Source: an archaeon
GTDB lineage: Archaea; Nanobdellota; Nanobdellia; Pacearchaeales; GW2011-AR1
DNA length: 64,000 bases
Assembly: GCA_018697035.1 (NCBI GenBank)
Contig: JABHSE010000002.1
Span: 155,160 to 219,159, forward strand
Reading direction: 5' to 3'
Part shown: in pieces, positions 24,804-45,632 of the stretch
How the letters are laid out: every line of letters begins with the position of its first letter
Position numbering within the stretch: the stretch's first letter is position 1
Notes under the pieces: generated by a model
Told to the model about the DNA's origin: nothing
Databases searched by the model: none
The model's input: only the letters and a program-made list of their open reading frames with translations
Position numbers and translations under genes: made by a program

Positions 24804-25160
24804 ATGGCACAAAAAACAAAAACAAAAATAAGATATGTAGACATAAATGTAAACAAAGAAAACTTCGTCTCAAAACTAATCGGAGAAAAAAAATCTCACG
24901 ACTTCTCAGATGTAAAACTCCTTAGAAACCTCCTCTCAAACGAAAAATCTCGAATCCTCTACGTCCTCAAAACTCAAAATCCCAAATCAATATACGCTTT
25001 AGCAAAATTATTAGGTAGAGATTTCAAATCAGTAAGAGATGACATTAGGGTCCTGGAAAGATTCGGATTTATAGAATTCCATTCAGAAAAAACAGGCAAA
25101 CGCGAAGCCCTAAAACCAGTCCTAATAATAGATAAACTCCAAATAATAATAGAAGTCTAA
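24804..25160 (+). CDS. winged-helix DNA-binding protein (predicted transcriptional regulator)
   Basis: 118 aa. SRILYVLKTQNPKSIYALAKLLGRDFKSVRDDIRVLERFGFIEF is a wHTH. TATA-like TTATATAT lies 26-33 nt upstream of the ATG. Confidence 0.6.
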   Translation: MAQKTKTKIRYVDINVNKENFVSKLIGEKKSHDFSDVKLLRNLLSNEKSRILYVLKTQNPKSIYALAKLLGRDFKSVRDDIRVLERFGFIEFHSEKTGKREALKPVLIIDKLQIIIEV

Positions 25161-25648: not shown

Positions 25649-25649
25649 A

Positions 25650-26003
25650 TTATTTACCAATACTTTGTATAAATAAATTTAACTTTTTCCCCAATTTGTC
25701 AATTTCTTCAAAAATCAGAATCAAGTCACTCTCTGTTAAATAATCCAAATCTAAAGACAAAAAAATTTGAGATTCAACTTCCTTTAGGCTCCCCATAGCA
25801 TTATGTAAAAAATAAATCAGCTCTTTATTTGTTCTCCTTCCACATCCCTCAGCAATATTAGAACTTACACTAACTACAGCTCTCCTAACCTGCGAAGTCA
25901 ACCCATAAATCTCTTCTCTTGGAAATTCCCTACTCAAAACATAAATCATTTTATTTAATCCCCGAGCAATATTCCATATCTCCAATTCCTTAAAATTTCT
26001 CAT
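25650..26003 (-). CDS. four-helix-bundle protein (23S rRNA intervening-sequence protein family)
   Basis: FKELEIWNIARGLNKMIYVLSREFPREEIYGLTSQVRRAVVSVSSNIAEGCGRRTNKELIYFLHNAMGSLKEVESQ is the family signature. Low-GC atypical composition. Confidence 0.85.
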   Translation of the reverse strand: MRNFKELEIWNIARGLNKMIYVLSREFPREEIYGLTSQVRRAVVSVSSNIAEGCGRRTNKELIYFLHNAMGSLKEVESQIFLSLDLDYLTESDLILIFEEIDKLGKKLNLFIQSIGK

Positions 26004-26030: not shown

Positions 26031-26152
26031 CCGACTACCGACCACCCACCTCCGACATCCGAAATTTATCTCTCATAGTAAAATAGCAAAATTAGCCAAG
26101 TCGGCGACAACCGACTACCGAATTGCGACCTCCAGGTGGTCGACACCGACCA
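26031..26152. repeat. heptamer arrays and duplicated segment upstream of the four-helix-bundle gene
   Basis: CCGACTA CCGACCA CCCACCT CCGACAT CCGAAAT (26031-26065). CCGACTA CCGAATT GCGACCT ... CCGACCA (26111-26152). AAAATAGCAAA...CCGACTACCGA occurs twice (from 26007 and 26080). Confidence 0.8.
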
Positions 26153-26630
26153 CCAATTTCCCAATCTCACACCTGTCATAAACACTCCCGAACTCCTTCA
26201 TCCTTTTACAAATAGAAACATAAGACGAAAACTTCTCAACATTCCCCTGCCCCGAATCATAGACACCATAATAATTACAATTAGCAGAAGGACACGGCAC
26301 AATCGAATCAAACGCAGGATAAACTTTGTAAACCTCCAAGGAAGCAATCGGCCAAAACTCACCATAACTTTCCCCATAACCCTCAACCATAACCCTCAAC
26401 TTATCCTCGTCAAGACTCATAGATTCCCTGTCCCCATAACTAAGCTCAGGCATACCGGCAATAATCTCCAACGACGAAATCGCCTCCTCTCTAGACAACT
26501 CATCAGCACCACCACGAACATCCTTAAACATAATAACCAAAAAAAACAAACCAACCAAAACAAAAAAGAAAAACACTCCGATAATCATAAACGACATCTG
26601 CATAATCTTCATCTGCCCAAATTTTTTCAT
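26115..26630 (-). CDS. class III signal peptide protein (restarted after an insertion)
   Basis: MKKFGQMKIMQMSFMIIGVFFFFVLVGLFFLV. The last codons (VVGVDHLEVAIR) are encoded by the heptamer array. Confidence 0.55.
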   Translation of the reverse strand: MKKFGQMKIMQMSFMIIGVFFFFVLVGLFFLVIMFKDVRGGADELSREEAISSLEIIAGMPELSYGDRESMSLDEDKLRVMVEGYGESYGEFWPIASLEVYKVYPAFDSIVPCPSANCNYYGVYDSGQGNVEKFSSYVSICKRMKEFGSVYDRCEIGKLVVGVDHLEVAIR

Positions 26631-26782
26631 CTGCCCCACCTCTTAGGTTCAACTACCAAGTTTCTACAAGAAAGCGCGGTGCCGAAGGTGCTGTGATTTC
26701 TTGTAGAATAAAACCAACGACCAACGACCAACGACCAACAACCTCGCGAAGCGTTTGACATCTGCATAATCTTCATCTGCCC
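26593..26782. mobile_element. 138-bp hairpin-containing insert bracketed by a perfect 26-bp direct repeat
   Basis: GACATCTGCATAATCTTCATCTGCCC occurs at 26593-26618 and 26757-26782. The insert carries a 12-bp inverted repeat TTCTACAAGAAA (26662-26673) / TTTCTTGTAGAA (26697-26708) and (CCAACGA)x3 (26714-26734). The mechanism is unknown. Confidence 0.5.
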
Positions 26783-26833
26783 CCTTCTTCTCTCCCAGCT
26801 TCTAACTCCAAACTCCCAACTTTTTCTCACCAT
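26627..26833 (-). pseudogene. orphaned original 5' end (leader) of the 26115 pilin-like gene
   Basis: MVRKSWEFGVRSWERRRGQMKIMQMS matches the 26115 product through GQMKIMQMS, then runs into insert sequence. Its ATG overlaps the stop of the upstream gene, which is operon-style coupling. Confidence 0.55.
26793..26820. repeat. degenerate heptamer array TCCCAGC TTCTAAC TCCAAAC TCCCAAC
   Basis: Read directly. Encodes SWEFGVRSW in the orphaned leader. Confidence 0.7.
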
Positions 26834-27810
26834 ATCTTACACAGCTCCCCATTATTATTTCTATCCATACTCTCCGCAACGGTCTTCAACGCAACCAAAT
26901 CATCACTCGTAGCATTCCCAGCCAAGCTTCCCCAAACAATCAAATCTCCCCTTAGGTTAGTCCCACAGTCCCGAGCATCCATCAAGTCAGCCTTAGCAGA
27001 AAAAACACCAGCAATACTCTTCACTCGATACATCAACCTCTCAACATTGCACTCATAAACATCACTCTCAGAAAAAATCGCACCCCACATCAAATTTCCA
27101 ACATACCTCAAATCTCCAGACGGTTTCGACACAACACCCTCATCATAAATCGAATCACAACCACCCGAACACGAACCATAAACAATACTATCACAATCAC
27201 TACCACCTCCAAAACAAACCCTCTCAGAGTCACTACTACAATTATCAAAAACAATATTATCAATCCCCAAATCCAAAACCTCACCCGCAACAACATCCGG
27301 AGCATTCAAGAAACAATACTCCCTATCCATCAAAAAAATCAAATCACTAACCTCATACGGAAACTCAAACGGCTTAGAAAAAACATAATAATCAAATCCT
27401 TCATTCTCCCTATTTGAAAAAATATATTTATTATAAATCGAAGTAGCACCACCAGGCAAATTCCACTCATTCCCAACACCACTCCGCATCGCAACCGACA
27501 ACTCATTCTCCCCAAACCTTCCATCATTCAAACAATCATTAAACAACCGAGTCTCCTGCTTAAAAGAAATCTTTCCAAAAGAACCCTCCGAGAAACCAGC
27601 CTGCAACGGATCAGTCAAAATAGAAAAACTCTTCGCGGCCTCCGTATCACTTCCATATCTCAAACCATCACCAGCCTGCACCGCACCATAAATTGCCAAA
27701 GCCAAAATCGCACCCCCAGCCAAAATCGCAAATATCCAAACAAAATTGAACTGCCCTCTTTTTTGAGCCTGCGAAAAAAACGTAAAGATTTTCAATCTGC
27801 CTCTTTTCAT
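26827..27810 (-). CDS. class III signal peptide protein, Cys-rich ectodomain
   Basis: ...SQAQKRGQFNFVWIFAILAGGAILALAIYG. 327 aa. Includes CSSDSERVCFGGGSDCDSIVYGSCSGGCDS. Confidence 0.6.
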   Translation of the reverse strand: MKRGRLKIFTFFSQAQKRGQFNFVWIFAILAGGAILALAIYGAVQAGDGLRYGSDTEAAKSFSILTDPLQAGFSEGSFGKISFKQETRLFNDCLNDGRFGENELSVAMRSGVGNEWNLPGGATSIYNKYIFSNRENEGFDYYVFSKPFEFPYEVSDLIFLMDREYCFLNAPDVVAGEVLDLGIDNIVFDNCSSDSERVCFGGGSDCDSIVYGSCSGGCDSIYDEGVVSKPSGDLRYVGNLMWGAIFSESDVYECNVERLMYRVKSIAGVFSAKADLMDARDCGTNLRGDLIVWGSLAGNATSDDLVALKTVAESMDRNNNGELCKIW

Positions 27811-27848: not shown

Positions 27849-28349
27849 CTACGCAATCACAACAAACCGATCATAAAACCCCTTCTGAATCTTCAACCCA
27901 TCCTCAACATCAACACAATAAGGATTCGAAGTCGCCGTAATCTTCGTCACATTAATCCGCTCAATCAACTTCCATGCCATACCACTAGCTTCCTGCGGCG
28001 GAACCAAAAAAACATTAGCATCATAAAAATCAAAATCCTCTATCGCATCATAATCATCCCCAGGATTAGTTATTCTCTCATTCAAATTCCCAAAACAACC
28101 CCTCTCAATCCCCGACGGTAAACTTATATCAAAATCACTATCGCTCTCCTGCCCCTGAACAGCATTATCCACAGCCGCCTGGAAATCATCATAAAACATC
28201 CCAACCCTAGCACTATCTCCAATATCCAAGAAAGACCTAACAGCAATCCCAGCAATAACAAGAAAAACCACAATCAAAAAAATAGCAAAGATCATCCCAA
28301 ACGACATGCCCACAGCCTGCTGTCCACGTTTATCAATCACACTCCTCAT
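27849..28349 (-). CDS. class III signal peptide protein
   Basis: MRSVIDKRGQQAVGMSFGMIFAIFLIVVFLVIAG. ATG at 28349; the track start 28364 is TTG. Confidence 0.6.
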   Translation of the reverse strand: MRSVIDKRGQQAVGMSFGMIFAIFLIVVFLVIAGIAVRSFLDIGDSARVGMFYDDFQAAVDNAVQGQESDSDFDISLPSGIERGCFGNLNERITNPGDDYDAIEDFDFYDANVFLVPPQEASGMAWKLIERINVTKITATSNPYCVDVEDGLKIQKGFYDRFVVIA

Positions 28350-28464
28350 CCAAAACCAAACCAAACATATTTTATAAAACTATTTAACACCCCGCCCCTC
28401 AACATTCCACATAAAAAATATCAACAGTTCCAAAGTTAAAAACCCACCGCCAAGCCCCCACGAA

Positions 28465-28563
28465 GTGAGCCTTCCCATTTTGTAAAACAAAATGAGCCCC
28501 ACCATGCAAAGCATGAGCTAATCCACAAAAGTGAGCCTCTCAGTAATTTTCAAAGAAAATTAC
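28465..28563 (-). other. array of three hairpins interleaved with a repeated (G/A)TGAGC(C/T) motif
   Basis: Hairpins are CATTTTG-TAAAA-CAAAATG (28476-28494), CATGC-AAA-GCATG (28503-28515) and GTAATTTTC-AAA-GAAAATTAC (28543-28563, overlapping the stop codon). Motif copies: GTGAGCC at 28465 and 28531, ATGAGCC at 28492, ATGAGCT at 28513. Confidence 0.5.
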
Positions 28564-30616
28564 TAGTCGGCCGTACAATAATAGAACACTCCGCACCCTC
28601 ATTCAAAAACTCATCCCGACATTTGATATAATAAGTCTCTTCTTCATTCCACTCAGCAACATGAATCGTCGTATTCCCATAAGGCATCTCAACACCCTGC
28701 TCAAACGAAAAAACACAATCATCGAACGAATACGAACACTCACTATCCCGAATCGTCACAATCTTCAACATATCACCCTCTTCATAAACCCGCGCAATCA
28801 TCGGAGGACTGCTATCAATATCAACCTCAAACTCCGCAACATCCTCAACTAAATTACCACCCCCATCAACACACTTCACATAATACTGATGCTCCCCATC
28901 CGTAAGATCCAACCTCTGCGTATGAATCCCATCTTCATTATTCGTATCAAAAAACTGAATATAATTAACCCCATCACTAGACCATTCACAAACAGCTTGA
29001 CCCTCATCACAACCAAACATAGTCTCGACATAAAGCTCAACAGGCGCAGGGCTCACTCCTCCAGAAATACTCCCATTCGGCCTCAACTCACTCAAAACTA
29101 AACCAGTACTCCCCCTCAAACTAAACTCAAAACTCTCCCCGTTCTCATTCCTATCATTCTCTTCCTCTCCCGGCTGATCCTTACACCGAACATAATAAGT
29201 CGCGCCATCTCTCGGAATCCCAGTAAGCTCAGTACTACATCCAAACAACTGCAAAGCATTAACCTGCTGATAAGAAGAAGAACAACTCATATCGCTCTCC
29301 ATCAAATCATAATCCTGGTCCTGAAAACTCCACTTACATTCCGAAGGCTCATTCACATAGAATATAACTTCGGCACTATCAACATCCTCAGCAACACAAC
29401 CCTCATTAACAATACTAGTCGCATCAATCCTCGGAGCCGTAGTATCAGGACTAGGGTCAATACAAAAATTCACAGCATATTCAGCCGAATTCTCGTTCCC
29501 ATTCTTATCCTTACACCGAACATAAAACATCATATCCTTTCCATTCTCCAAAACAAAACCACTCCCTAGAAGCTCCGCAGCCCCAGGCAAACTAAACACA
29601 TCACTATGATTATAACTATACAAATTACTCCCACCAAAGAAAGCAGTCATATCATCAAACTTCGTAGTATGATTAAAATCAATCTTACACTGCGCCGGCT
29701 CATCAGTCACAAGTCCAAATTCCAAAGGTGTAAACGCCATTAAACATCCATCCTCAGTCGCAACATTCACAATCTCAAAACCAGGTCCAGGCGGCGAATT
29801 CTTAACATTCTTATACTCATGACCCGTCGACAACTCATCATAATTCGGCTTAATAATAGGAGGGTCAACATCCCTAGGATTAACATAAACACATCTCTCC
29901 TCCTCCGTCCCCTCATTCACAATCTCACAAGCCTGCCCCAAAGCCTTACACCTATACTCACTACAAGGCAAATCATCATCATTACAAACCTCACAAGAGT
30001 CCCCACCATTAGGTGCCTGCCAAGGCATACAATCAAAAGTCACAACCTTCATCTCAACATCCTTATACATCAAAGCAAAAACCAAAACACCAACACCAAG
30101 TCCAATCCAACCAGCATTAGAGACTATTGACCCACCCTTAGCAAGTGCTCCAGTCCCAGTCGTATACGAACTAAAGGCCTTATACACCCCGAGTCCAGCC
30201 GCCAAACTCATCCCCAAAGCCTCCGAATTACCTTCATCCATACCAAACATATCTCCAAGCATTGTCCCAGCAAAATAAGCCAAAGCAGCCCATTGCAAAC
30301 CAGAAACAAGAGCACTCGGTCCACTTCCAGGAGTCATCTTAAATATACCAGATAAATAAGAATCAGAAGCTGTTGTAGGCAAGTTTACAGTACCAGGAAC
30401 TTCCGCTAATATACCCTTTCCCGCAGGAGAACCAACTGCTTCCCAGCCGACTCCATCAGAAACCCATAATTTATCAGGCGAAAGCATTCCTTTAGCTGAA
30501 GTGTAGATAGGATAAGAACCCCCACTAACAATCCCCATCATACCAACAACACCAATAAATCCAAAAACCAACAGCCAAACCTGCAACATCGCCACGCCCC
30601 TAACACCAAATCTCAT
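28550..30616 (-). CDS. large Cys-containing membrane/surface protein (paralog of the C-terminal half of the 36194..40054 product)
   Basis: ATG at 30616, with TTTATAAA 22-29 nt upstream. It has a signal anchor, a Gly/Ala-rich multi-TM region, and four repeats ending in YY[VI][RK]C-x-D. See findings. Confidence 0.65.
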   Translation of the reverse strand: MRFGVRGVAMLQVWLLVFGFIGVVGMMGIVSGGSYPIYTSAKGMLSPDKLWVSDGVGWEAVGSPAGKGILAEVPGTVNLPTTASDSYLSGIFKMTPGSGPSALVSGLQWAALAYFAGTMLGDMFGMDEGNSEALGMSLAAGLGVYKAFSSYTTGTGALAKGGSIVSNAGWIGLGVGVLVFALMYKDVEMKVVTFDCMPWQAPNGGDSCEVCNDDDLPCSEYRCKALGQACEIVNEGTEEERCVYVNPRDVDPPIIKPNYDELSTGHEYKNVKNSPPGPGFEIVNVATEDGCLMAFTPLEFGLVTDEPAQCKIDFNHTTKFDDMTAFFGGSNLYSYNHSDVFSLPGAAELLGSGFVLENGKDMMFYVRCKDKNGNENSAEYAVNFCIDPSPDTTAPRIDATSIVNEGCVAEDVDSAEVIFYVNEPSECKWSFQDQDYDLMESDMSCSSSYQQVNALQLFGCSTELTGIPRDGATYYVRCKDQPGEEENDRNENGESFEFSLRGSTGLVLSELRPNGSISGGVSPAPVELYVETMFGCDEGQAVCEWSSDGVNYIQFFDTNNEDGIHTQRLDLTDGEHQYYVKCVDGGGNLVEDVAEFEVDIDSSPPMIARVYEEGDMLKIVTIRDSECSYSFDDCVFSFEQGVEMPYGNTTIHVAEWNEEETYYIKCRDEFLNEGAECSIIVRPTSNFL

Positions 30617-30757
30617 ACTAAAACATTGCATCACACATTTATAAATTCTATCATCTTCCCAAATACAAAACGAGGCAACCAATGGTAACCATATATAGAA
30701 AAAATTTATGTGCAAGCAATCATGGGAAAACCCACACATAAATTTTAATATCGTTCT

Positions 30758-32968
30758 TCAATAAGTATTAAACTTGAAGTTACGCGGACTTTTGGGAATA
30801 TTAAACAATATTACCATAAAGGGCAACTCACTATTTGCAGATATATTCTGATGGGATTTACTACATTCCCTTAGTTTATCAGATACTTCCCGTTTACTAT
30901 AACGAAATACTTCATCATCTTCCATTAAGCATCCAACATAAACTCTTCCATAGGTTCTGGATTTCTTCCCCCTAAACTCACAAATAATCTTAGGGATTTC
31001 ATTAGAGGTATCGTGCTGATTTTTAATTTTCCCCCTCACAATATAAATTCTCCCATATCTGGGATGATTTTTAAATTGCCCAAATACTGTTCTATGATTA
31101 ATCCCAACCTCTTCAACCTGCCCGAATATCCACTTCTCCAAATCTTCTCCAAAGTCCTCAAATTCAAAATAATTTTCATAGGAAGCAAGATGAGACAAGA
31201 ATGAAATAATCTTCTCATTGGATACTTGAAGTAAAAATTTATCTCCTTCTCTTCTGATATCAACAATGCCAATAGCAGTTCGGATATCTTTGACAACCTT
31301 CGAAAAAATATTCAGTCCGTCAAGATAACCCGAAAAGTTATCAATAGATTTATCATAAAGATTTTTTATGGTTTGAGAAGAACCCACATCATTAGTTCCA
31401 ATAGAGAAACTAAGATGTCCATCCAAACCCAATTTTCCAGATACCAATCCCCATTGACCAACGGAAAGGATATCTAGTGCAGACATTAACGGCAGGCGCT
31501 TCCTGATTGAATTTATTTCATTCGCACCAAAATCCTCATCTACAGATTCTTTAATTTCTGAAAGTGCCCTAGGAGTAACCCTAACACCAGCAACAAATTG
31601 ACTATCCCTTGGAGCAGCGAGTATTAAGGGCAAGTGCCAATCAGAAGAATCAATATCAACTGAACTATCAGGCAGTTTACGATATATAAACCAGTCATCT
31701 TCCACCTCATACCCACTATATTCACACCCCTTACATTTCGGCGACAAATCAAACAAGAATTCAAAAATATCATCATAAGAAGAATCTGGCTTAATCTTAA
31801 TACCTATACCATAATTCCCAACCGGATCAGATACAAAGTAAATAAAAGATGCAACATCTCGCAAACCCTGAACAAATTCCTCCAACCCAAGAATCTCATT
31901 CCTAACCTCGGCAACAAGAGAATTACCAGTAGGCAGCATCTCATAAAGTTGCCCTGGCTTAATTGACCCAATATCTACAAGAGCAAAGAGGCAATTATCA
32001 TTTGACTTAAGGCTCTTAGGCAACGCAACGTTATGAATGTTTTCCACAATCCCAACTCCAACCTCATAAGCCATCCCCTCCAAACTCGCCCGCCTCACAG
32101 CCCCAGCCATATTCACCTCAAAAGTAAGATTCGGAATCTCCACAAAAATCTTATCATCCTTCTCCAGTTTGGAACTATCAAAGTTAAGAGAAATTTCTCT
32201 ACCAAGATGAGAGTACATCATGGATATGCCTTCAGGAACATAATAAGGAACCTTATACACAACATAACCAGCTCCATATTTTTCCCGAAGCTTCTCAATC
32301 ATTTCCTTATCCCGACTATCCATACCATACTTCACAGCACCCTTTACCAAATCCGCAGCCTTCCCATGCTTCCCAAAAAATCCAGTACTATTGTCGAATG
32401 CCATCTCAAGCTGAGTCCGATCATCATCACTCAAATCATAAGTCCCTTCAATAGAAGCATTGTACTTCATCAAGAGCCTAGATAATTCAGTATTCTCCGG
32501 AGAGCAAGCGCGCAGAGATATTTCTTTTTCAGTTACATTGTCCACAGCATCAATAGTTTGCGTCTCGCCATTAATAACCAATTTCTCAGGAAGCACCAAA
32601 TAAACATGCGTTCCTGTCATAACTTCTTGAAACAGCTGCTGAGAAACAGGGATACGGCCACTCAATTCTTGGACATTTTGGTCAGCACCATACTTCACCG
32701 TTAAAACATTTCCCGTCATATTTACCTCAACATCAATTTTCAAATGCGACCTAGGAGCAGATTCAACAGAAAGATAATTTCCAGACGATTTAACCTCATT
32801 TTCCTGAACCCTCAATAACCCCCTCCTAGCAGGTAACTGAGTGTTCAAGTTAGTAATATTTTTCCCCTGTGTAAAATAAGAATACTCCCCAGTTTTATCC
32901 TGATTAGCAGAAGCAACACCAGAAAGCCCAATAACCAATCCAGCAATTAAACAAACAAATTTTTTCAT
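30758..32968 (-). CDS. secreted hypothetical protein, compositionally foreign
   Basis: 736 aa. Sec-type signal MKKFVCLIAGLVIGLSGVASA. A-rich coding strand (plus strand 31501-31560: T25 A16 C14 G5), unlike native minus-strand genes. No family recognised. Confidence 0.6.
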   Translation of the reverse strand: MKKFVCLIAGLVIGLSGVASANQDKTGEYSYFTQGKNITNLNTQLPARRGLLRVQENEVKSSGNYLSVESAPRSHLKIDVEVNMTGNVLTVKYGADQNVQELSGRIPVSQQLFQEVMTGTHVYLVLPEKLVINGETQTIDAVDNVTEKEISLRACSPENTELSRLLMKYNASIEGTYDLSDDDRTQLEMAFDNSTGFFGKHGKAADLVKGAVKYGMDSRDKEMIEKLREKYGAGYVVYKVPYYVPEGISMMYSHLGREISLNFDSSKLEKDDKIFVEIPNLTFEVNMAGAVRRASLEGMAYEVGVGIVENIHNVALPKSLKSNDNCLFALVDIGSIKPGQLYEMLPTGNSLVAEVRNEILGLEEFVQGLRDVASFIYFVSDPVGNYGIGIKIKPDSSYDDIFEFLFDLSPKCKGCEYSGYEVEDDWFIYRKLPDSSVDIDSSDWHLPLILAAPRDSQFVAGVRVTPRALSEIKESVDEDFGANEINSIRKRLPLMSALDILSVGQWGLVSGKLGLDGHLSFSIGTNDVGSSQTIKNLYDKSIDNFSGYLDGLNIFSKVVKDIRTAIGIVDIRREGDKFLLQVSNEKIISFLSHLASYENYFEFEDFGEDLEKWIFGQVEEVGINHRTVFGQFKNHPRYGRIYIVRGKIKNQHDTSNEIPKIICEFRGKKSRTYGRVYVGCLMEDDEVFRYSKREVSDKLRECSKSHQNISANSELPFMVILFNIPKSPRNFKFNTY

Positions 32969-33207
32969 AACAATCTCCCAATTAAATTAAATAAAAATCA
33001 CACAAACCTCTACAAAAACACCAAGCCAAAAACATATTCCGACTCATTTCAAATATCAACCAAGATATTCCAACCCAAACACAAGTCAAAAGAAGTCTCC
33101 ACGCAAAAGCGCAAGTAGTCAGTGTAGTCTCTGTAAGTTTTGTGTATTGTTAATAATAAAGATTATCAATAACACATTAAAAAACTTCCTATTCTGGTTC
33201 CAAAAGT

Positions 33208-34959
33208 TTATTCTTCAAGACTTTTCTCGACCCCATCAACAACCCAGTTATACCCATCATCAGTATAAACCCCATCATAATTAACAGCCCCACCACAATC
33301 TCCAAGCGAACTACAAACAGCATTAGCACTCTCAGCCCACTCATTACCCAAACACTCAGCCCCCTCAACAATATCACTCCCACCAATCAAACCCTCTTCA
33401 TAAACCACAACACATCGAGCACTGGCCTGTCCACAAATAGTCCCAGCACTCCCCTCTTTCCAAAATTCTAGACCAGGCGGAAAATTAGGAACACAAATTC
33501 CATTAGGCCTATTAGTAGTAGTTCCCTCAATTTCTTCTTCATCATCATCCCCACCACCAAAAATCGAATCCCCAGTAATAGGCGCAATAACAGCAGCCGT
33601 AGGATTAGTAAACGCAGGAGTATCGGTATCACTTGTAGGATTAGAATAACTACTAGAACTACTACTTCCCCCACCCAAAATCATCCCCATAACAGAACCC
33701 ATCCACTTACAATCTCTCTGATCAATATTCAAACAATCTTCCTCATCAGCCTGCATCACACAATCTTGCCATCGATTAACCCGACAAGCCGCAGTCCCAA
33801 AATCCCCTTCATCCGTATCAATCGAGCCCTCTAAACAAACCTCATTCCTAAAATCACTACAAGGCTCAACCTTCACCTCACCATCAACACAAATCTCTCT
33901 GTAGTGCCGACTACCGACATCCGAACCCCGACTACCGAAATCCTCTACACACCAAGACTCCCCATTAATCCGCTTATCCCCCCCCCTATCTATACACTCA
34001 GTCTTCTGACAATAATGATCTCCTCCAACAGGTCCACCAATCATCCCATCGAACTCTTCACACCGAGTCCCCAATAAATAATCACAATTCCCACAATTAA
34101 GATCATCCCCATTATTTGCAGCACAAACCTCCACGTCTTCAGCAACTCGACCATTATTCCAACTCTTATCCTTATTACTCGAATAAACGTTTTCATTATT
34201 TCCACAAGAGTCTACCCAAAAAACATCACCCTGATAACAAGTAGTCGAAGTCTGCCTAGCGCAAGCCGTATTCAATTCCTCAGCCGAACAAAGATAATCT
34301 TTGTAAAAGGTCTTCCCACTCGCAACATCTAGGGTATCATTTTGAGCAACAATCTCAACTTCATTAACAGCACCACACTCTCCTCTCGTCGTAAACTCAC
34401 AAATATTTTCAAAATCACTTTCATAAACACAAGCACCTTTATCTTGTGCCTGAGCCTCCGCAATACAACTAACCTCGTCGGTAATATCAGTCCTATAATC
34501 ATTCTCAACACCAAACAAAGTCGACAATCTCTTACATCGAACAAGCGGAACAAACGCAGCCTGGTCCGCAATCACACAACATCCCAACTGACACTGCGGT
34601 ACCTCATCAACTTCTCTCTCGTCCCAAGTCCCACCATTCTCATTACAAACATTTTGCGGCGTATTCCCCATACAAATTCCCTCCTCACTCTCATAACAAG
34701 TTCCAAGTCGACAATACGAAGTAGTCTCGCACGAAGTCGGCGCAACATTATAACTAGTATCACAAGCACTCTCTTCGTCATTCACACACCACGCTCCCTC
34801 AGTTGTCTTCTCACAACAATAACTAGCTTCACTAGTCGCAGCCATTCCAAGTCCAGCTAACAAAATAATCATAACAAAAAACAACCAACCCGGGCGTAGC
34901 CCCCGATCTCCTAACCCCCAACTCCTAACCCCCAACTTATGAAAATTCCCTATTTTCAT
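33208..34959 (-). CDS. Cys-rich secreted protein (paralog of the N-terminal half of the 36194..40054 product)
   Basis: 583 aa. Dozens of Cys in CxxC-poor, EGF-like spacing. GESWCVEDFGSRGSDVGSRHYREICVDGEVKVEPCSDFRNEVC and LGDCGGAVN are shared with the fusion protein. ATGA overlap with the upstream gene. Confidence 0.65.
   Translation of the reverse strand: MKIGNFHKLGVRSWGLGDRGLRPGWLFFVMIILLAGLGMAATSEASYCCEKTTEGAWCVNDEESACDTSYNVAPTSCETTSYCRLGTCYESEEGICMGNTPQNVCNENGGTWDEREVDEVPQCQLGCCVIADQAAFVPLVRCKRLSTLFGVENDYRTDITDEVSCIAEAQAQDKGACVYESDFENICEFTTRGECGAVNEVEIVAQNDTLDVASGKTFYKDYLCSAEELNTACARQTSTTCYQGDVFWVDSCGNNENVYSSNKDKSWNNGRVAEDVEVCAANNGDDLNCGNCDYLLGTRCEEFDGMIGGPVGGDHYCQKTECIDRGGDKRINGESWCVEDFGSRGSDVGSRHYREICVDGEVKVEPCSDFRNEVCLEGSIDTDEGDFGTAACRVNRWQDCVMQADEEDCLNIDQRDCKWMGSVMGMILGGGSSSSSSYSNPTSDTDTPAFTNPTAAVIAPITGDSIFGGGDDDEEEIEGTTTNRPNGICVPNFPPGLEFWKEGSAGTICGQASARCVVVYEEGLIGGSDIVEGAECLGNEWAESANAVCSSLGDCGGAVNYDGVYTDDGYNWVVDGVEKSLEE
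33907..33941. repeat. heptamer array CCGACTA CCGACAT CCGAACC CCGACTA CCGAAAT
   Basis: Read directly. In frame inside the 583-aa CDS, where it encodes FGSRGSDVGSRH. Confidence 0.85.
34909..34936. repeat. perfect (TCCTAACCCCCAAC)x2 heptamer-pair array
   Basis: Read directly. Lies in codons 8-17 of the 583-aa gene (LGVRSWGLG). Confidence 0.9.
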
Positions 34960-35705
34960 ATATCATATCCCGCCGGAAATACTAAGCTCCGACTCGCAAA
35001 TTTAAATTTATTACCAAATGTCTTATGCTCCAAAACATAAATCGTCGTCCCCTCTCCTCGCTTAATCTTCTCAATGTAATAATCAGGATAATAAAGCATC
35101 ATACTCGAAACATCACTGTCACCATACTTAGTCTCAAACTGCAAAATCGAAGTCGCAATCATAACCATATCATAAACAGGAGCATTAGCTTCAACACTAA
35201 ACCTAGCAAAACTCTGCGACCCAACAGATACAGGCGCATCAATCTCAAGTCGAACAGCTCCAGGTTCAATCTCAACATTATAATCAACCGCACCAGAATC
35301 AACATCATATCCCTCCTCCCTCAAACTAGCCAAACTCGCATCATAACAAGCATCAACATCATCCCTAATTAAAGCCTCTAAATTCTCATCAAACACATTC
35401 TTCAAAAACGGAACCTGCACAACACAAGTCTCATAAAAATTATTAGTATAACAAAGGTAAGTCAACTCCTCTCCATTATACGAATATGTAAAATCAGCCT
35501 CGATAAAACCAGCTTTCCCCTCAAGTTCACTAATCCCACTTTCAAGAGCATCCTCAACACATCCTTCAAATCCCTTTATCCCAACTCCCTCAGAAAAATA
35601 AGTAGGTTGCGCCCACAAAAAGAAAACCAAAAGAACAGATACTATCATAATAGCCACTATAATAAAAATCGTCACCTGTCCCCCTTTTCCGTCAAAACTC
35701 CTCAT
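34956..35705 (-). CDS. class III signal peptide protein (paralog of 40051..40848)
   Basis: MRSFDGKGGQVTIFIIVAIMIVSVLLVFFLW. The C-terminal KFKFASRSLVFPAGYDI matches EFKFAVRSCAFAPGI of the paralog. Confidence 0.65.
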   Translation of the reverse strand: MRSFDGKGGQVTIFIIVAIMIVSVLLVFFLWAQPTYFSEGVGIKGFEGCVEDALESGISELEGKAGFIEADFTYSYNGEELTYLCYTNNFYETCVVQVPFLKNVFDENLEALIRDDVDACYDASLASLREEGYDVDSGAVDYNVEIEPGAVRLEIDAPVSVGSQSFARFSVEANAPVYDMVMIATSILQFETKYGDSDVSSMMLYYPDYYIEKIKRGEGTTIYVLEHKTFGNKFKFASRSLVFPAGYDI

Positions 35706-35739
35706 AATAACTCTAACATTTCCATATTTATAAAATCTC

Positions 35740-36105
35740 TCATCTCAATTCACTCTTCCTAATATACTCAATAAAAGAAAATAACTTCATCTCAAGACCA
35801 ACAACCTTATTATTCAACTCATTAAATCCACCTTCCGTGAGATAATCCAAATCTTTGGCAAGAAACAATTGAGATTCAATTTCTTTAAGACTTCCCATGG
35901 CATTATGCAAGAAAGAAACAAAATCTTTACTAGTCCTCCTACCACACCCCTCAGCAATATTAGAAGAAACACTAACCGCGGCTCTTCTTAGTTGATTAGT
36001 CAATCCATAAATCTCATCTCTAGGAAAATCTCCAGTAGCAACATAAACCAATTTATTCAACTCTCGAGCAATTTTCCAAACATCCAATTTCTTAAAGTCC
36101 CTCAT
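35740..36105 (-). CDS. four-helix-bundle protein (23S rRNA intervening-sequence protein family), second copy
   Basis: FKKLDVWKIARELNKLVYVATGDFPRDEIYGLTNQLRRAAVSVSSNIAEGCGRRTSKDFVSFLHNAMGSLKEIESQ. Low-GC atypical composition. Confidence 0.85.
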   Translation of the reverse strand: MRDFKKLDVWKIARELNKLVYVATGDFPRDEIYGLTNQLRRAAVSVSSNIAEGCGRRTSKDFVSFLHNAMGSLKEIESQLFLAKDLDYLTEGGFNELNNKVVGLEMKLFSFIEYIRKSELR

Positions 36106-36193
36106 ATTATTTACCCAAGTCCCGCGCGTAGCGCTACCATCGCAACGAAGTTGCTACCATCCACTATCGACCCTCCGAAAATGCTTCGCATTT

Positions 36194-39100
36194 TCATACA
36201 GCAACCACCTCAATAGAACACCCGTCAGGCACATTCCCAAAATCATCCTTACATTTGATGTAGTAAGCATTACCATTTATGACACCAATAGAATGCTCTT
36301 CTCCACTTCCAGCATCCTCTCCATCTCCCCAACTAAACCTACAGGTCTCCATAGAATATTTACACTCCGCATCCTCAGTCGTAATGAAATGAAGTCTACT
36401 ACCAGCTTGCCAAACACGAGCGACAATAGGAGTCGAACTGTCTCGAACAATCTCAAACTCCGTCAAACCCCTATCAAAATCTCCAGTCTCATCTCGACAT
36501 TCAACAAAAATTTCATTAGAGCCAGCAGGACGATTCAAACTCTGAACATGCGTTCGACTTTCTCCCGTCTCAAACATTTCAATCATAGTATCATATCCAG
36601 AAAACGAATAAGAACAAAAATGAGAATCCCCACCACCACTAGTCGCAACCTTCAGCTCAATCGTCGTATAATCAGTATTAACCTCAAAATCACTATCAGG
36701 CTCAACTTTGTCAATTGAAATTTTCGAACTAGGCTTCTCTAAACTCAAAACAAAACTCTCCACGTTAGCATTTCTGTCACTGGTTTCATTCTCCCAAGGT
36801 TGATCCATGCATCTAAAATAATAATCCCGACTCGAATTCCCAATATCCAAAACTCCACTACACTCATACCCAAAAACACTCGAAGGTCTCCCCAACAAAT
36901 CAAGACAAACCAAATCATTACTCATACTAGAATACGAGACATCAACTAAGTCCCACCTACATTCCGCAAGCTCATTCGTCACAATCAAAGCACTAACATT
37001 CACAGCATCAAACGAAACAATGTCCCCACTTTCAGGCTCACTGCCAACAACAACCGGCGGCGTCACATCATCTCCCTCAACAACACACATATCAACCTCA
37101 AAAAACTCAGGACTAATCATACCATATCTATCTTGACATTTGATATACAAAGTTAATTCCGAAGTCCAATTCAATCCCTGACTTTCCCCATGACTCGGGT
37201 CTGGCAAACTAAAAACCGTACTATGATTATATGTATAACTATGGCTACCCAATTCGTAACTCATCTCCTCGAACTCATTCGCAACAACATCAAACCGACA
37301 CTGAGCAGGCTCACTTGTCACAATACCAAATTCCAAAGGAGTATAAGCATCAACACATCCACCACCTTCACTAACAACACTAAACCCATTTTCACTATCT
37401 ATATAACTCCCACCCGCAAAACCAATCGCAATATTCCGACGAACAATCGGCGGCGTCACATCGTTAGGATTCCCACTAACACAAAGCTCGTCCCCACTAC
37501 CCTCATTAATAAACTCACATCCAGCACCCAAACTCTCACACCGATATTCCGAACACGGCTTCAATAAGTCCCCATTGCATTCCTCACAAGAGTCACCTCC
37601 GATTGACGCCTGCCACGGCTGACATTCAAACTCAATTTCAATAGGTGGACAATCCGCCATCCCAAAGAATAGGGATAAAACTATAAGGAAAATACCAACC
37701 CAAAGTAAAGCAGTATAAACTGCTGCGGATAACACCTTCGCTCCCATGAGAGCTGCTCCAACCATTCCCCCTCCAATCGACATAAGCATACTACCACCCT
37801 CACTAAGCCCCAACCACTGAGCGAGCATCGCGCCAGCAACCATACCAATCCCAGCACCAATAGCAGCACTAGCAAATCCAGCCATACTAGCACCCTGAGC
37901 TGTAGACCCACCAATACCAGAAGCAAGTTTAGCTCCAACAGGTCCACCTTTAGCTAAAAGATATCCTTTTGCAACCTCCCCTCCAATCAACCCTCCTCCC
38001 TTCAAAACCGCAAATCCCATAACCTTCCCAGTAAAAGCAAAGTTCATCGCCGCTCCAATTCCACTAAGTCCCTGCCCAATCATACTAATATCAAAAGGTT
38101 CATCTTCTTCTGGAGAACCAGGAGCACTAGGTCCTCCCCAGACTCCACCTGCTTCCAAATACTCCGAATAATCCTCAACCTCAGCAAACTGCCCAGGAAT
38201 AGGAAGAGCCAACCTACTCAACGCATCAATCCAATCACCACTAAGAAACATGCCCTCACTCAAAGCCCCATCTCGCCTAATAATATAATTCCCAGACCAC
38301 TCCCCTAAAATATTAACCGATCCACCACAGTCCCCAAGCCCTCGACAAAAATCATTCATCTCCTGCCCAAACGTCTCACCCAGACATCCTTCATTCGCAA
38401 CATATTCACACCCTCCCCACTTTTTCGGTTTCTGAATAACAGTACACTTCTGACTAGCCATCCCACAAAGAGCCTCAGCACTAGTCTGATATCTCTCATC
38501 ATTCAAACTAAAACCTCCCGGATAATCAGGCAAACAAACATCAAAACTAAACTTATTACCAATAACAATATTTTCAACTCTACAATTCAGAGTAGTAGCG
38601 CACTCATCCATCACACTCAATGCATCAGGTCCACCACAAGCAGCAATAGCATCATCAATACATTCCATTTTCTCAAAATCACCAGGATAAAGGGTATAGT
38701 TCCCACAATTTTGAGACAGCCCAGAGACACAGGCCTTATTCGAAGCCGCGCTCTGCTCACTCTCCTTTTTCCCATTCAAATCAATACAGCTCCTCCAATT
38801 ATTGGCAACACAAGCCGCATTCTCAAACTCAACAACCGTCCCATTCACTTCAAACTCCTTTGACTGCACACAAATTTGATTCCGATAATCCGCACAAGGC
38901 TCAATCTGCACAAGACCCTGCGCACAAACATATTTCCAATGCCGAGACCCAACAACATCATCTCCCTCGCCAATCGCCCCATCGTAAACACACCACGATT
39001 CCCCATTTTCATATTCAATCCCATCAAACATACAAGAAGTATCTCGACAATAAAACTCACCGATATCAACTTCGAAACTGTCCTCACTAGCAGAAGCACA

Positions 39101-40054
39101 TATTCCACCCGCAAACCTGTCACAATTTCCGCAACTCGGATTATCCGCATTCCCACCTTCAATATCCTCACTCCCACAAACGTCCTCAGCCTCGGCAACC
39201 ATGTCCCAATAATCCACATCCTCAACCTTTTCAGAATCATAGATATTCGCCCGGTTCCCACAAGAATCCATAAAATAAACCCCATCCTTCCCATCAACAC
39301 AACTAGTCTGCCTAGTCATCTCACAACTAGTATTAAGCGAATCAGAAGTACATAGATAATTATGATTAAAATCCCCATCATAAGAAAAGCAATCCGCCTC
39401 ATTCAAAAATTCACATCCCCCTTCCCCTAAAACACAAGCTCCCATATCCTGGACAGCAGCCAAATACAAACACTCTCCCGCATCAACATCACTCCTCCAA
39501 TCAACAATATCGGTATCTCCAAGCCCCCTGGAATAATCAACTTCACACTGCCCCTTAGTTTCAAAAATAGTTTGTTCCCCTAAAACACAACATCCAAGAG
39601 CAGCTCCAGGCAAATTACAATTAGGGTCATCTATCCAATCCGCTGAGCAAGCGAACTCCAAAACATTCTTGTCATAAATTCCAGCCCCATCATCATAACA
39701 ACATCCCTTTTCACAAAAAGCAGTCTCTTCACAAAGCGCACCCTCAGCAAACGGAGAATCCTCAACACAATTTTCAGGATCAGCAGTTCCACACACCTGT
39801 CCATCAATGCTCAAAAAACAACAACCTACATCATCAGCGCTACTAGAGATAGGATAGCTAGTCCATTTCTCATCCTCAATCAACTCTCCATACGTAAACC
39901 TATCAAGAAAGTCCTGAAGTCTATCCTCTTCCTCGTCTTCAATAGCAGAAACAAACCCAGTCTCATTTAAGCTCACAAAATAGCAAAACGAAAAAAGCAT
40001 TCCAACCATCAAAACCATTTCAAATCCAGCAACAATTCTTCTATTCATCATCAT
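36194..40054 (-). CDS. giant Cys-rich membrane/surface protein (fusion of the 583-aa-like and 729-aa-like modules)
   Basis: ATG at 40054 overlaps the upstream stop (ATGA). It has an N-terminal TM, a Cys-rich ectodomain, a central Gly/Ala-rich TM block, and four C-terminal repeats. The track start 40075 is inside the upstream gene. Confidence 0.7.
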   Translation of the reverse strand: MMMNRRIVAGFEMVLMVGMLFSFCYFVSLNETGFVSAIEDEEEDRLQDFLDRFTYGELIEDEKWTSYPISSSADDVGCCFLSIDGQVCGTADPENCVEDSPFAEGALCEETAFCEKGCCYDDGAGIYDKNVLEFACSADWIDDPNCNLPGAALGCCVLGEQTIFETKGQCEVDYSRGLGDTDIVDWRSDVDAGECLYLAAVQDMGACVLGEGGCEFLNEADCFSYDGDFNHNYLCTSDSLNTSCEMTRQTSCVDGKDGVYFMDSCGNRANIYDSEKVEDVDYWDMVAEAEDVCGSEDIEGGNADNPSCGNCDRFAGGICASASEDSFEVDIGEFYCRDTSCMFDGIEYENGESWCVYDGAIGEGDDVVGSRHWKYVCAQGLVQIEPCADYRNQICVQSKEFEVNGTVVEFENAACVANNWRSCIDLNGKKESEQSAASNKACVSGLSQNCGNYTLYPGDFEKMECIDDAIAACGGPDALSVMDECATTLNCRVENIVIGNKFSFDVCLPDYPGGFSLNDERYQTSAEALCGMASQKCTVIQKPKKWGGCEYVANEGCLGETFGQEMNDFCRGLGDCGGSVNILGEWSGNYIIRRDGALSEGMFLSGDWIDALSRLALPIPGQFAEVEDYSEYLEAGGVWGGPSAPGSPEEDEPFDISMIGQGLSGIGAAMNFAFTGKVMGFAVLKGGGLIGGEVAKGYLLAKGGPVGAKLASGIGGSTAQGASMAGFASAAIGAGIGMVAGAMLAQWLGLSEGGSMLMSIGGGMVGAALMGAKVLSAAVYTALLWVGIFLIVLSLFFGMADCPPIEIEFECQPWQASIGGDSCEECNGDLLKPCSEYRCESLGAGCEFINEGSGDELCVSGNPNDVTPPIVRRNIAIGFAGGSYIDSENGFSVVSEGGGCVDAYTPLEFGIVTSEPAQCRFDVVANEFEEMSYELGSHSYTYNHSTVFSLPDPSHGESQGLNWTSELTLYIKCQDRYGMISPEFFEVDMCVVEGDDVTPPVVVGSEPESGDIVSFDAVNVSALIVTNELAECRWDLVDVSYSSMSNDLVCLDLLGRPSSVFGYECSGVLDIGNSSRDYYFRCMDQPWENETSDRNANVESFVLSLEKPSSKISIDKVEPDSDFEVNTDYTTIELKVATSGGGDSHFCSYSFSGYDTMIEMFETGESRTHVQSLNRPAGSNEIFVECRDETGDFDRGLTEFEIVRDSSTPIVARVWQAGSRLHFITTEDAECKYSMETCRFSWGDGEDAGSGEEHSIGVINGNAYYIKCKDDFGNVPDGCSIEVVAV

Positions 40055-40848
40055 ATCCCCGGCGCAAAAGCACAACTCCTCACAGCAAATTTAAATTCCG
40101 CTCCGGTCCGTCGATCAATTACTCTATATATCTTACTATCAGAATAATCAATTCGCCGAATATCATATTCAGGATAAAGCAACATATAACCATTATACTC
40201 AAAATTACAAAATTGCGACTCACTATTCACGATCTCTCGAGTAACTCGAACCAAATCATAAATCGGCGACATAACCTCAACACCAAAATCATCAAAACTC
40301 TGCACCCCACCCAAACCCGAAACTTCAATATCCTTCATTAAATTAACCTCAATATATCCCGGCAACAAATCAATAGAATAATCAGTCCCACCCCCACTCA
40401 CATCGAAACCTCTATCTTCAAAATCCTCTCTCATCGCATTAAAACAACTCTGCACTTCGATACTTGTATCCTTCACAATCTCTTTTTCAATCTGCATCTC
40501 TAACATCGGATGAAGATTATAACATCCCTGATAATAATCAGCCTGATAACACAAATAATTCCATTCTCGCCCATCATACGAAATCGCCTGTGACGCTAAA
40601 ACCTCACCACCATTCCGCAACATCTTGTCAATCGATTCCTCCACAACATCCCGAACACATCCAACAACAATATCCCGAGGCTCCAAATCACTCGGCTTCA
40701 CACCATCTCCATCCTGCCCCATCAAAAAAACCAAACTCAAAATAGCGACGACAATCACAATACCAATTATAATAAAAATCGTCACCTGTCCCTTTCTGCT
40801 CCTAACTCCTAACTCCCAACTCCCAACTTGTTTTAGCGCATCAGCCAT
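40051..40848 (-). CDS. class III signal peptide protein with heptamer-encoded leader
   Basis: MADALKQVGSWELGVRSRKGQVTIFIIIGIVIVVAILSLVFLMG. 265 aa. Confidence 0.65.
   Translation of the reverse strand: MADALKQVGSWELGVRSRKGQVTIFIIIGIVIVVAILSLVFLMGQDGDGVKPSDLEPRDIVVGCVRDVVEESIDKMLRNGGEVLASQAISYDGREWNYLCYQADYYQGCYNLHPMLEMQIEKEIVKDTSIEVQSCFNAMREDFEDRGFDVSGGGTDYSIDLLPGYIEVNLMKDIEVSGLGGVQSFDDFGVEVMSPIYDLVRVTREIVNSESQFCNFEYNGYMLLYPEYDIRRIDYSDSKIYRVIDRRTGAEFKFAVRSCAFAPGI
40800..40827. repeat. heptamer array TCCTAAC x2 plus TCCCAAC x2
   Basis: Read directly. Occupies codons 8-16 of the 265-aa gene (GSWELGVRS). It is absent from the paralog at 34956..35705. Confidence 0.9.
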
Positions 40849-41018
40849 AAATTCACCCCCACTTTCTTAATCCTATCAATCTTCCCGTCAATCAACAACT
40901 CCATCAAACATTTCTCCGCAGTATTCCAAGATACCCCAAAAAACTCAGCAACCTCACTACTAGTAACAACCCTCTCTTTCTTAATCAACTTAACCAACTC
41001 AACACTATGAACCTTCAT
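40833..41018 (-). CDS. small winged-helix DNA-binding protein at the head of the cluster
   Basis: MKVHSVELVKLIKKERVVTSSEVAEFFGVSWNTAEKCLMELLIDGKIDRIKK. TTTATATA lies about 35-45 nt upstream of ATG 41018; the track start 41081 is TTG. The 3' end overlaps the next gene by 16 nt. Confidence 0.55.
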   Translation of the reverse strand: MKVHSVELVKLIKKERVVTSSEVAEFFGVSWNTAEKCLMELLIDGKIDRIKKVGVNLWLMR

Positions 41019-41101
41019 AATAATATACCTATTAGAATACCTATGAATATCCATATATAAATATTGCCATAAGTTGCTCAAATCTGCAAAATAAAATTTT
41101 A

Positions 41102-41259: not shown

Positions 41260-41982
41260 CTAATCGTTCTCAACTCGCGGCGCCAAAACAAACCCAATTC
41301 CCATCTTCTCTCCAGGAAAGTCCAGCCTCAAAGGATAGTCGTCAGAAAAATTAACAACAACATTGCCACTAATCTTCATCCCCTTAACAAACTTCATCAA
41401 ATACTCTAAACTATATTTACTACGCCCTTGCCCAAACAACTCCAAATCCCCACCACTAAACTCAGCCCTAGCAGAATTAAGCGTCCCATTTCCCTCAACC
41501 GCAAAAACATCATCCTTCAAAACAAAAGCACAAGAATCCGAAACAACATTAGCATCCTCAACCGCTTGACTAAAATCCCGAGCATTCATCTCAACCCTCG
41601 CCCCAAAATTAAGCTCCGGAATATCCTTGTCCTCAGCACTAACCTCAATCAAAGCCAAACTAAAATTCCTCTTAATCTTATCAAAAACCGTAATCTTCAA
41701 CTTCCCTTCAACCTCTTCTAATGTCACCGAAGCAGCTCCCGAAGCCCTCTTCAAAATCTTCTTCAAATCCCCAAGATTAACCCCCCAAACCTCACTCCCA
41801 ACTTCATATTGAGAAAAAGATTCCTTAGGTAACCTAAAAATAACCAAGGCAACATTAGCCGGATCAACTGCCACCACGCTAAGTCCATCCTCAAGTAACT
41901 TAATCCGAACCTCAACAACAACATTCGAAATAATATCAATAGCGTCCCCCAACAACTTCGGATCATCCAGTTTCAAAATCAT
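41260..41982 (-). CDS. pcn: DNA polymerase sliding clamp PCNA
   Basis: 240 aa. The length and two-domain pattern fit (LSVVAVDPANVALVIF..., SKYSLEYLMKFVKG..., DYPLRLDF). Confidence 0.85.
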   Translation of the reverse strand: MILKLDDPKLLGDAIDIISNVVVEVRIKLLEDGLSVVAVDPANVALVIFRLPKESFSQYEVGSEVWGVNLGDLKKILKRASGAASVTLEEVEGKLKITVFDKIKRNFSLALIEVSAEDKDIPELNFGARVEMNARDFSQAVEDANVVSDSCAFVLKDDVFAVEGNGTLNSARAEFSGGDLELFGQGRSKYSLEYLMKFVKGMKISGNVVVNFSDDYPLRLDFPGEKMGIGFVLAPRVEND

Positions 41983-45563: not shown

Positions 45564-45632
45564 AAATAACAAATCACAAAATCACACAGCCCAAATCAAA
45601 ATAGTTATAAACCACCAACCCCTCAAACCAAC

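Follow-up and report, generated by a model that had tools for sequence, protein, structure and literature searches.

This study was concerned with a 64,000-nucleotide stretch of chromosomal DNA (contig JABHSE010000002.1, positions 155,160 to 219,159; referred to here as the window, about 39% G+C) from a small-genome DPANN archaeon of the Pacearchaeales, and with a group of large cysteine-rich proteins encoded in it. One of these proteins, A (1286 residues), corresponds to two separate proteins of the same locus, as its N-terminal part is homologous to protein B and its C-terminal part is homologous to protein C. A and B are each preceded by a pilin-like gene, E1 and E2, respectively. The explanation favored here, to which a probability of about 75% is assigned, is that the region represents two ancient paralogous copies of a DPANN-specific (Pacearchaeota and Woesearchaeota) cell-envelope module. 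Each copy would comprise a pilin-like E protein of about 250 residues and a large disulfide-rich protein whose start overlaps the E stop. From the N- to the C-terminus the large protein would contain a Sec-type signal or anchor, a cysteine-rich head of about 510 residues, a disordered linker, a glycine-zipper membrane segment, a cysteine knot and four immunoglobulin-like (Ig-like) domains. The first copy would be the single 1286-residue chain A, and the second would have been broken in the linker into B (the head) and C (the membrane segment and Ig-like stalk). The split would have arisen once, through fission at the base of a large clade, and would have been kept under purifying selection. 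The break site would then have repeatedly taken insertions, including the lineage-specific gene D, and the two genes would have been repeatedly re-joined. B and C would assemble non-covalently into an A-like structure, each with its own E partner, and the head and Ig-like stalk would be extracellular and disulfide-bonded. The proposed role is that of a surface adhesion or host-contact structure together with six pilin-like proteins and an S-layer protein.

The fused protein and its two separate counterparts

Every gene of the A, B, C and E locus lies on the minus strand. The features of the two modules are:

40051..40848, minus strand: E1, 265-residue pilin-like protein of module 1, with the class III signal motif RKG/QVTIFIIIG (slash, junction); paralog of E2
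36194..40054, minus strand: A, 1286-residue fused protein with signal/anchor, cysteine-rich head, linker, glycine-zipper helical segment, cysteine knot and four Ig-like domains
38285..39823, minus strand: head (N) domain of A (residues 78-590), for which BLASTP shows homology to B; predicted local distance difference test score (pLDDT) from AlphaFold2 (AF2) mostly 80-95
38054..38284, minus strand: junction region of A, residues about 591-667 (model residues 505-581), the break site of the split paralog, from the last helical elements of the head to the variable linker
37658..38053, minus strand: hydrophobic/glycine-zipper segments H0-H3 of A, residues 668-799, from hydropathy and AF2 helices
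36197..37642, minus strand: C part of A, residues 805-1286, a CxPWQ…CxxC cysteine knot followed by four Ig-like beta-sandwich domains, from BLASTP, Foldseek and hhalign
34956..35705, minus strand: E2, 249-residue pilin-like protein of module 2; paralog of E1
33208..34959, minus strand: B, 583-residue head-only protein with a signal peptide and the cysteine-rich N domain (41 cysteines)
30758..32968, minus strand: D, 736-residue secreted protein with a Sec signal, at the breakpoint between B and C; non-homologous to A, B and C
28550..30739, minus strand: C, 729 residues (688 if the ATG at 30616 is used), with one or more N-terminal transmembrane segments, glycine-zipper helices, cysteine knot and four Ig-like domains

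Pairwise BLASTP was performed on the minus-strand translations, in which all quoted coordinates and peptides were located. Residues 78-587 of A aligned with residues 48-566 of B (30% identity, 176 bits, E = 1e-50), and residues 672-1283 of A aligned with residues 59-722 of C (33% identity, 305 bits, E = 2e-93). E1 and E2 aligned at 32% identity (E = 1e-43). B and C did not match each other (E = 2.4); they match non-overlapping, collinear parts of A. The original prediction, made from the letters of the window, had proposed all three correspondences (A with B, A with C, and the two upstream prepilin-like genes with each other), and the alignments bear it out.

The similarity also extends beyond the spacing of cysteines. 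When every cysteine was replaced by X, the alignments of A with B and of A with C were still significant (E = 2e-18 and E = 7e-65, respectively), and most identities were at residues other than cysteine (143 of 178 for A and B, 209 of 230 for A and C). Fifty shuffles of B or C gave no more than 27 bits against A. Thus, the homology is collinear and is not an artefact of cysteine spacing. The invariant alignment positions (47 to 80) are mostly cysteines, and the invariant cysteine pattern is retained across 108 B orthologs.

The junction maps to residues 591-667, approximately, of A. B ends just past a conserved GDCGGxVNYxGxYTDDGYxW motif, a position that corresponds in A to where the variable disordered linker begins.

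Rosetta-stone composite proteins and gene fission-fusion pairs were reportedly described by Marcotte et al. and by Enright et al. in 1999. The present case resembles them in that one chain equals two encoded proteins that are collinear, non-overlapping and encoded close together, and the logic that the components of a composite interact is applicable to B and C. However, the composite and its components are here paralogs that share a genome and a locus, fission is the likely direction, and a single orthologous lineage shows split, re-fused and three-piece states.

The AF2 model of residues 87-1286 of A, built with 112 sequences, had a mean pLDDT of 79.9 and a predicted template modelling score (pTM) of 0.64. 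It contains a cysteine-rich head with beta-rich and alpha/beta parts, about 90 disordered residues (639-729, model residues 553-643, where pLDDT is below 50), three helices (725-748, 752-770 and 777-795), a small cysteine-rich unit (FxCxPWQ…CxxC…PCSEYRC) and four beta-sandwiches. The pTM of the model hints that the head and stalk are packed together despite the 90-residue linker. Hydropathy analysis identified four hydrophobic segments, H0 (668-684) and H1-H3 (728-799), and H0 aligns with the N-terminal transmembrane segment of C. The four Ig-like repeats are mutually homologous (hhalign probability 41-97%). Foldseek matched the tail of A to tandem Ig and fibronectin type III (FN3) ectodomains and to bacterial adhesins (E = 1e-11 to 1e-7), a similarity at the level of fold only. 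Thus, fold and repeat homology identify the Ig-like array; Pfam Big_13 (PF19077) scored below its cut-off in the C protein of the window (19 bits vs 27) and was a precomputed hit in some C orthologs.

The head has no recognizable relative of this kind. The AF2 model of B (mean pLDDT 77.8) gave no Foldseek match with E below 0.25 in the PDB (releases up to April 2026) or among the viral predicted structures of BFVD, and its best match in the PDB was the finger-EGF pair of tissue plasminogen activator (E = 1.1). Pfam, NCBIfam and PDB-sequence searches of the A, B, C, D and E proteins found nothing above threshold, and a family-profile scan of IMG/VR viral contigs found no relatives. Archaeal fusexins (Fsx1, HAP2-like) are also archaeal proteins with a disulfide-rich, beta-rich ectodomain and C-terminal membrane helices. 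A fusexin-like or viral-glycoprotein origin of the head was rejected on the Foldseek results for B, which included no PDB match with E below 1, to the three-domain class II fusogen fold or to any other.

Two other known groups resemble the remaining parts of A. Tandem Ig/FN3 adhesins and ectodomains (Bap BSP 7c7u, RTX 6xi1, the GhpA grappling hook 9flw, PTP-delta and NCAM) share the four beta-sandwiches and the B-F type cysteine pairs of the C half. However, the template modelling scores are low and indicate only a generic fold, and in A the array is preceded by membrane helices and a cysteine knot and is attached to an orphan cysteine-rich head. Glycine-zipper membrane proteins share the GxxxG-rich helices that lie between the two halves, and NCBI names the ortholog P0087 a "glycine zipper family protein". 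Unlike in those proteins, the segment is a minor part of A and gave no family match in the Pfam and NCBIfam scans.

A separate observation concerns residues 425-480, approximately, of B (window 33520..33690), which form a Ser/Thr/Gly-rich low-complexity insert with AF2 pLDDT below 50 at 431-471. The corresponding site in A is a cysteine-containing helical subdomain. The insert could be a glycosylated or flexible loop.

Direction and age of the split

The comparison set consisted of 85 loci and one further context: five fetched contexts (L001-L005), 80 species-representative loci and one DNA-less context from the Joint Genome Institute (JGI). The nearest homologs of the proteins studied come from metagenome-assembled genomes labelled Pacearchaeota, Woesearchaeota or Nanoarchaeota. 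The family profile matched 3758 clusters (50% identity), of which the 150 best were without exception fused proteins of 1006-1520 residues. The best 120 hits to A were fused or contig-truncated, the best 120 hits to B were all head-only (473-805 residues), and the best 120 hits to C were all tail-only (453-1024 residues). The NCBI locus tags of the hits place B and C adjacent to each other or one to four genes apart.

A neighbor-joining tree of 147 N domains was built with 50 bootstraps and rooted at the midpoint or between the paralogs, this being an orphan family with no outgroup. All 62 clearly split N domains fell within a single B clade (50/50 bootstraps), which also held 12 fused members. 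Outside this clade, N domains were fused in 73 of 73 cases. More distant fused proteins in which each half resembles its B or C counterpart (P0168, P0200, P0201, P0220 and P0230) branch as sister to the split clade. Fitch parsimony gave a fused root and a split ancestor of the B clade, with 11 changes in total. From these sequence comparisons it is quite likely that B and C are products of the fission of a fused ancestor, rather than A being a late fusion; the judgement is set no higher because the trees are all distance trees and lack an outgroup. The original prediction had spoken of a Rosetta-stone fusion and had called for a survey of fused and split relatives; the outcome of the survey made here makes the opposite direction the likelier one.

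The alternative is that separate B-like and C-like genes are ancestral and that A-type proteins were made by joining them. Fusions are usually reported to be more common than fissions in genome surveys, and the 12 fused members inside the split clade demonstrate that joining happens. In addition, a root placed within the split clade, or on the branch leading to it, would leave the polarity open or reverse it. However, the fused state is universal outside the split clade and among the best 150 family representatives, and the sisters of the split clade are fused proteins B/C-like in both halves. A-type and B/C-type proteins also coexist in the same genomes, and the duplication node, which is the natural root, parts two lineages whose basal members are fused in both. 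We consider an ancestral split state unlikely.

With fission preferred, the most economical history would begin with an ancient duplication of the fused module, after which one of the paralogs underwent a single early fission and re-fusions followed. Re-joining would be easy where the genes abut or overlap. The fused protein of L003 (1442 residues) is 57% identical to B, 52% identical to C and 30% identical to A. Thus, fused and split forms occur within one orthologous lineage.

The duplication itself is old. B is 57-64% identical to its orthologs in L002-L004, and the fused A orthologs of these loci are 38-52% identical to A of the window, whereas B and A are only 30% identical. Because B is closer to its orthologs than to A, the duplication is ancient and not a recent local tandem event. 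The duplicated module of the original prediction is therefore retained as a pair of paralogous modules, one fused and one split, but not as a recent or local duplication.

Module number also varies. A third module is present in L001 (20886..23004) and in the JGI 3300072015 contig (14095..16555), consisting of an extra E-like gene followed by a protein of 449 or 568 residues, and two fused modules are present in L002, L003 and L023. Thus, the module copy number is two to three.

The breakpoint, gene D and the probable unity of B and C

The state of the B-type copy was counted in the 80 species-representative loci. It was split with C downstream and abutting or overlapping (gap of -41 to +50 nucleotides) in about 18 loci, split with C downstream after a gap of 176-4845 nucleotides in about 29 loci, fused (1215-1443 residues) in 12 loci, and split with no C within about 9.8 kb in 3 loci. 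C was downstream of B in 47 of the 50 species loci with enough flanking sequence.

In the window B and C are separated by the unrelated 736-residue D, so that the split module is interrupted, and another gene, of the 23S_rRNA_IVP type, lies between A and E2. The original prediction mentioned neither of these genes. D was found only in the window and in its closest relative, L001, among the loci compared. It was absent from L002-L005, and no relative of it was present among the genes between B and C in L006-L085. The two D proteins are 52% identical, compared with 81-83% for the flanking B and C proteins. The composition of D differs slightly from that of its neighbors, with lower G+C and weaker skew, and a 239-nucleotide AT-rich spacer lies upstream of it.

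The break between B and C is an insertion hot spot in relatives as well. Several lineages have HepT/MNT toxin-antitoxin pairs there, and unrelated small genes of other kinds were also found, with such cargo seen in L005 (11794..12434), L043 (two HepT/MNT copies), L044, L056, L067 and L076. A lipoprotein-like family, X (134-330 residues), most members of which have a lipobox-like N-terminus (…SGC) and a DxNxNGxxD-type motif, has no Pfam match. It lies directly before C in 10 loci of the sub-clade to which the window belongs (L002 22310..23029 and nine others), and the window and L001 have D in that position. D was considered as a diverged relative of family X, and a hidden Markov model test gave no support for this.

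These insertions bear on a second alternative, in which D broke a redundant paralog and B and C are its decaying pseudogene remnants, with no joint function. D lies exactly at the break and differs in composition, and toxin-antitoxin genes occupy the same site in relatives. Against this, B and C are full-length and intact in at least 47 species, the cysteine pattern noted above has been held throughout the B orthologs, the overlap of B with E2 is kept, and many relatives are split without any insertion. The ratio of non-synonymous to synonymous substitution (dN/dS) between the window and L001 was 0.14-0.19 for E1, A, E2, B and C, with B (0.15) and C (0.19) in the same range as A (0.18), and was 0.27 for D. 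These low values indicate that the split genes are under purifying selection and are not decaying. Decay is thus a very improbable account.

The position of the break also varies around a linker module, Y, of about 100 residues with a signal peptide, a KVSDLxxGDxIxDxxGxEI motif and an ITGN motif. Y is a free gene in 8 species (within L043-L055), forms the C-terminus of the head protein in 5 (L050, L054, L056, L061 and L062), and forms the N-terminus of the tail protein in 3 (L004, L026 and L029). Y had a weak, sub-threshold similarity to PT-HINT (E = 0.0066, 17 bits vs a cut-off of 27.7). Hint-type autoprocessing or trans-splicing by Y, a speculative candidate, was set aside, as the PDB profile search was empty and A itself is without Y.

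A third alternative is that B and C have been functionally independent since the fission, B as a free secreted cysteine-rich protein and C as a membrane Ig-like protein, paralogy being silent on whether they form a complex. B carries a signal peptide of its own and lacks a membrane anchor, the two genes can be separated by up to 4.8 kb of unrelated genes, three loci have no C within about 9.8 kb, and the AT-rich spacer upstream of D could hold a separate promoter. However, the order B then C and their orientation are kept in 47 of the 50 informative loci, the genes abut or overlap in about 18, re-fusion has occurred repeatedly (12 fused members), and Y has been exchanged between the two proteins, standing C-terminally on N in some species and N-terminally on C in others. 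We regard independence as a decidedly unlikely outcome. It is most likely, from this comparative evidence, that B and C still work as one unit, as the original prediction had argued, and the inference is strengthened by the kept order, the abutting genes, the fused members in the split clade and the breakpoint that moves around Y.

Pilin-like genes, locus setting and possible role

The other genes of the locus are:

40833..41081, minus strand: small winged-helix protein (DeoR/FaeA-like; Pfam DUF977/HTH_DeoR), lying downstream of PCNA (41260..41982) and opening the locus in a conserved position
35740..36105, minus strand: 23S_rRNA_IVP four-helix-bundle (Avd-like) gene, between A and E2
27849..28364, minus strand: pilin-like gene, RGQ or FGQ motif then hydrophobic stretch
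26827..27810, minus strand: pilin-like gene, same motif and stretch
26115..26639, minus strand: pilin-like gene, same motif and stretch
25650..26003, minus strand: second 23S_rRNA_IVP gene, interrupting the run of four pilin-like genes
25157..25660, minus strand: pilin-like gene, same motif and stretch
22243..24375, minus strand: S-layer-like protein of 710 residues (Pfam S_layer_C, E = 2e-9), the conserved end of the locus

The pilin-like assignment is based on the signal motif. The junction [KR][GA]/Q is conserved in 13 E proteins, and the E family, together with the majority of proteins in the families designated 171, 327, 174 and 167, has a G/Q (or A/Q) junction with a hydrophobic stretch, so that five families of the locus carry a class III signal. 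The residue preceding G/Q is usually basic but is not invariant. For the four genes other than E, the junction is kept in most L001, L003 and L004 orthologs, and one ortholog varies at Q itself. The leader length ranges from 5 to 32 residues across orthologs with the junction kept, and a constant junction with a variable leader is a hallmark of class III (prepilin) signal peptides. No curated pilin model in Pfam or NCBIfam matched any of the six pilin-like proteins, and the E profile found nothing with E below 0.4 among PDB sequences. The E1 stop overlaps the A start, and the E2 stop overlaps the B start, in both cases as ATGA, which is typical of translationally coupled genes.

Type IV pilus systems with minor pilins and adhesin tips, such as bacterial PilY1 with PilVWX, are similar in that very large surface proteins other than pilins are encoded beside several pilin-like genes with class III signal motifs. 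In archaea, DUF2341 "PilY-like" proteins have been predicted, with conserved-cysteine-rich components in some archaeal loci (PMC4858521), and an adhesin is part of archaeal subsystem 4A/B (bioRxiv 10.64898/2026.04.22.720090). Unlike these adhesins, A has its own glycine-zipper membrane segment and there are no motor genes nearby. No PilY1 or DUF2341 domain was hit in Pfam or NCBIfam, and none was present among the 50 best Foldseek matches listed. Because the defining domains and the motor genes are absent, the locus is not classed as a member of the type IV pilus adhesin systems. No description of this family turned up in literature searches that covered DPANN archaea, pilins and surface proteins rich in cysteine.

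The gene order is shared across the 85 loci and the JGI context. From PCNA (with primase before it in some arrangements), the small winged-helix gene is followed by one or two pairs of E and fused N-C genes, by E with the B-type gene, by C and by the four pilin-like genes, after which come an HVO_A0114-type winged-helix gene on the opposite strand and the S-layer-like protein. The order E, N-C, E, N and then C recurs in about 80 species of Pacearchaeota and Woesearchaeota. The first gene has orthologs of 61-85 residues in the same position in L001-L004, and the S-layer-like gene is matched in position in L003, L005 and the JGI contig. Tentatively, the E and N-C modules, in two to three copies, might together with the four pilin-like genes and the S-layer gene form a host-recognition or attachment machine of DPANN archaea, with the head as the variable host-binding part, although we regard this as doubtful. 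In such a machine the head would be carried on the Ig-like stalk and glycine-zipper segment and displayed with processed pilin-like subunits, with no dedicated motor in the locus.

Several points weigh against ancient duplication, fission and a joint surface role. First, the polarity depends on neighbor-joining with midpoint or paralog rooting. Secondly, parsimony implies about ten re-fusions, and if fission is easier than fusion, many independent fissions would be an alternative. Third, C was not found downstream of B in the three loci noted above. Fourth, membrane topology is ambiguous from hydropathy alone. Four crossings in A would put both cysteine-rich halves outside the cell, which would fit the presumed disulfides, but some split C proteins have a plain signal peptide followed by three helices, for which the naive topology places the Ig-like part inside. 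Lastly, no type IV pilus secretion ATPase, platform protein (TadC/FlaJ) or prepilin peptidase was present among the scanned open reading frames (ORFs) of the 64-kb window, and none was present among the genes called in L001-L005 or listed for the DNA-less JGI contig.

The 23S_rRNA_IVP genes look like small mobile genes. The two in the window occupy intergenic slots of the operon and are 62% identical to each other, and L001 is without them at those positions. Similar genes occur in 8 of the 85 related loci at differing intergenic sites (N-C/E, E/N and E/N-C), always in the orientation of the operon. A diversity-generating retroelement was considered for these Avd-like genes; no reverse transcriptase domain was found among the scanned ORFs of the window, and repeats were not searched for.

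Elsewhere in the window are housekeeping genes, including PCNA, primase, FtsZ and class I lysyl-tRNA synthetase. The large subunit of a form III-type RuBisCO is encoded at 59648..60922, and a thymidine/AMP-phosphorylase-like gene lies at 1393..2865. Both belong to a nucleotide-salvage pathway commonly reported in DPANN archaea. On the plus strand at 44589..48821, beside primase, ORFs of 324, 622 and 429 residues have no Pfam match, and ORFs of 601-607 residues without a Pfam hit occupy the same primase-adjacent position in L001, L003 and L004. Wherever the minus strand is the coding one, the GC skew of the plus strand is strongly and persistently negative (-0.3 to -0.5), so that the coding strands there are markedly richer in G than in C.

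The protein family appears to be undescribed; it is very large, has no name, and has a head without a structural relative. The fission event itself is an ordinary evolutionary phenomenon, and for the biology of the DPANN cell surface the locus and its orphan family hold moderate interest. Most lineage-specific protein families of Pacearchaeota and Woesearchaeota are without a predicted function, and how these archaea contact their hosts has yet to be described (PMC8204110). The module is found in thousands of lineages of these groups, and the locus is among their most conserved surface-gene arrays. The series of fission, re-fusion and three-piece states predicts the partners of a complex, B with C and each with a pilin-like partner, and the split and fused forms mark domain boundaries that can guide the design of constructs for structural work. 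If the proposed surface machine were real, its variants (split, re-fused and three-piece) would serve as natural experiments defining where the subunit interfaces lie.

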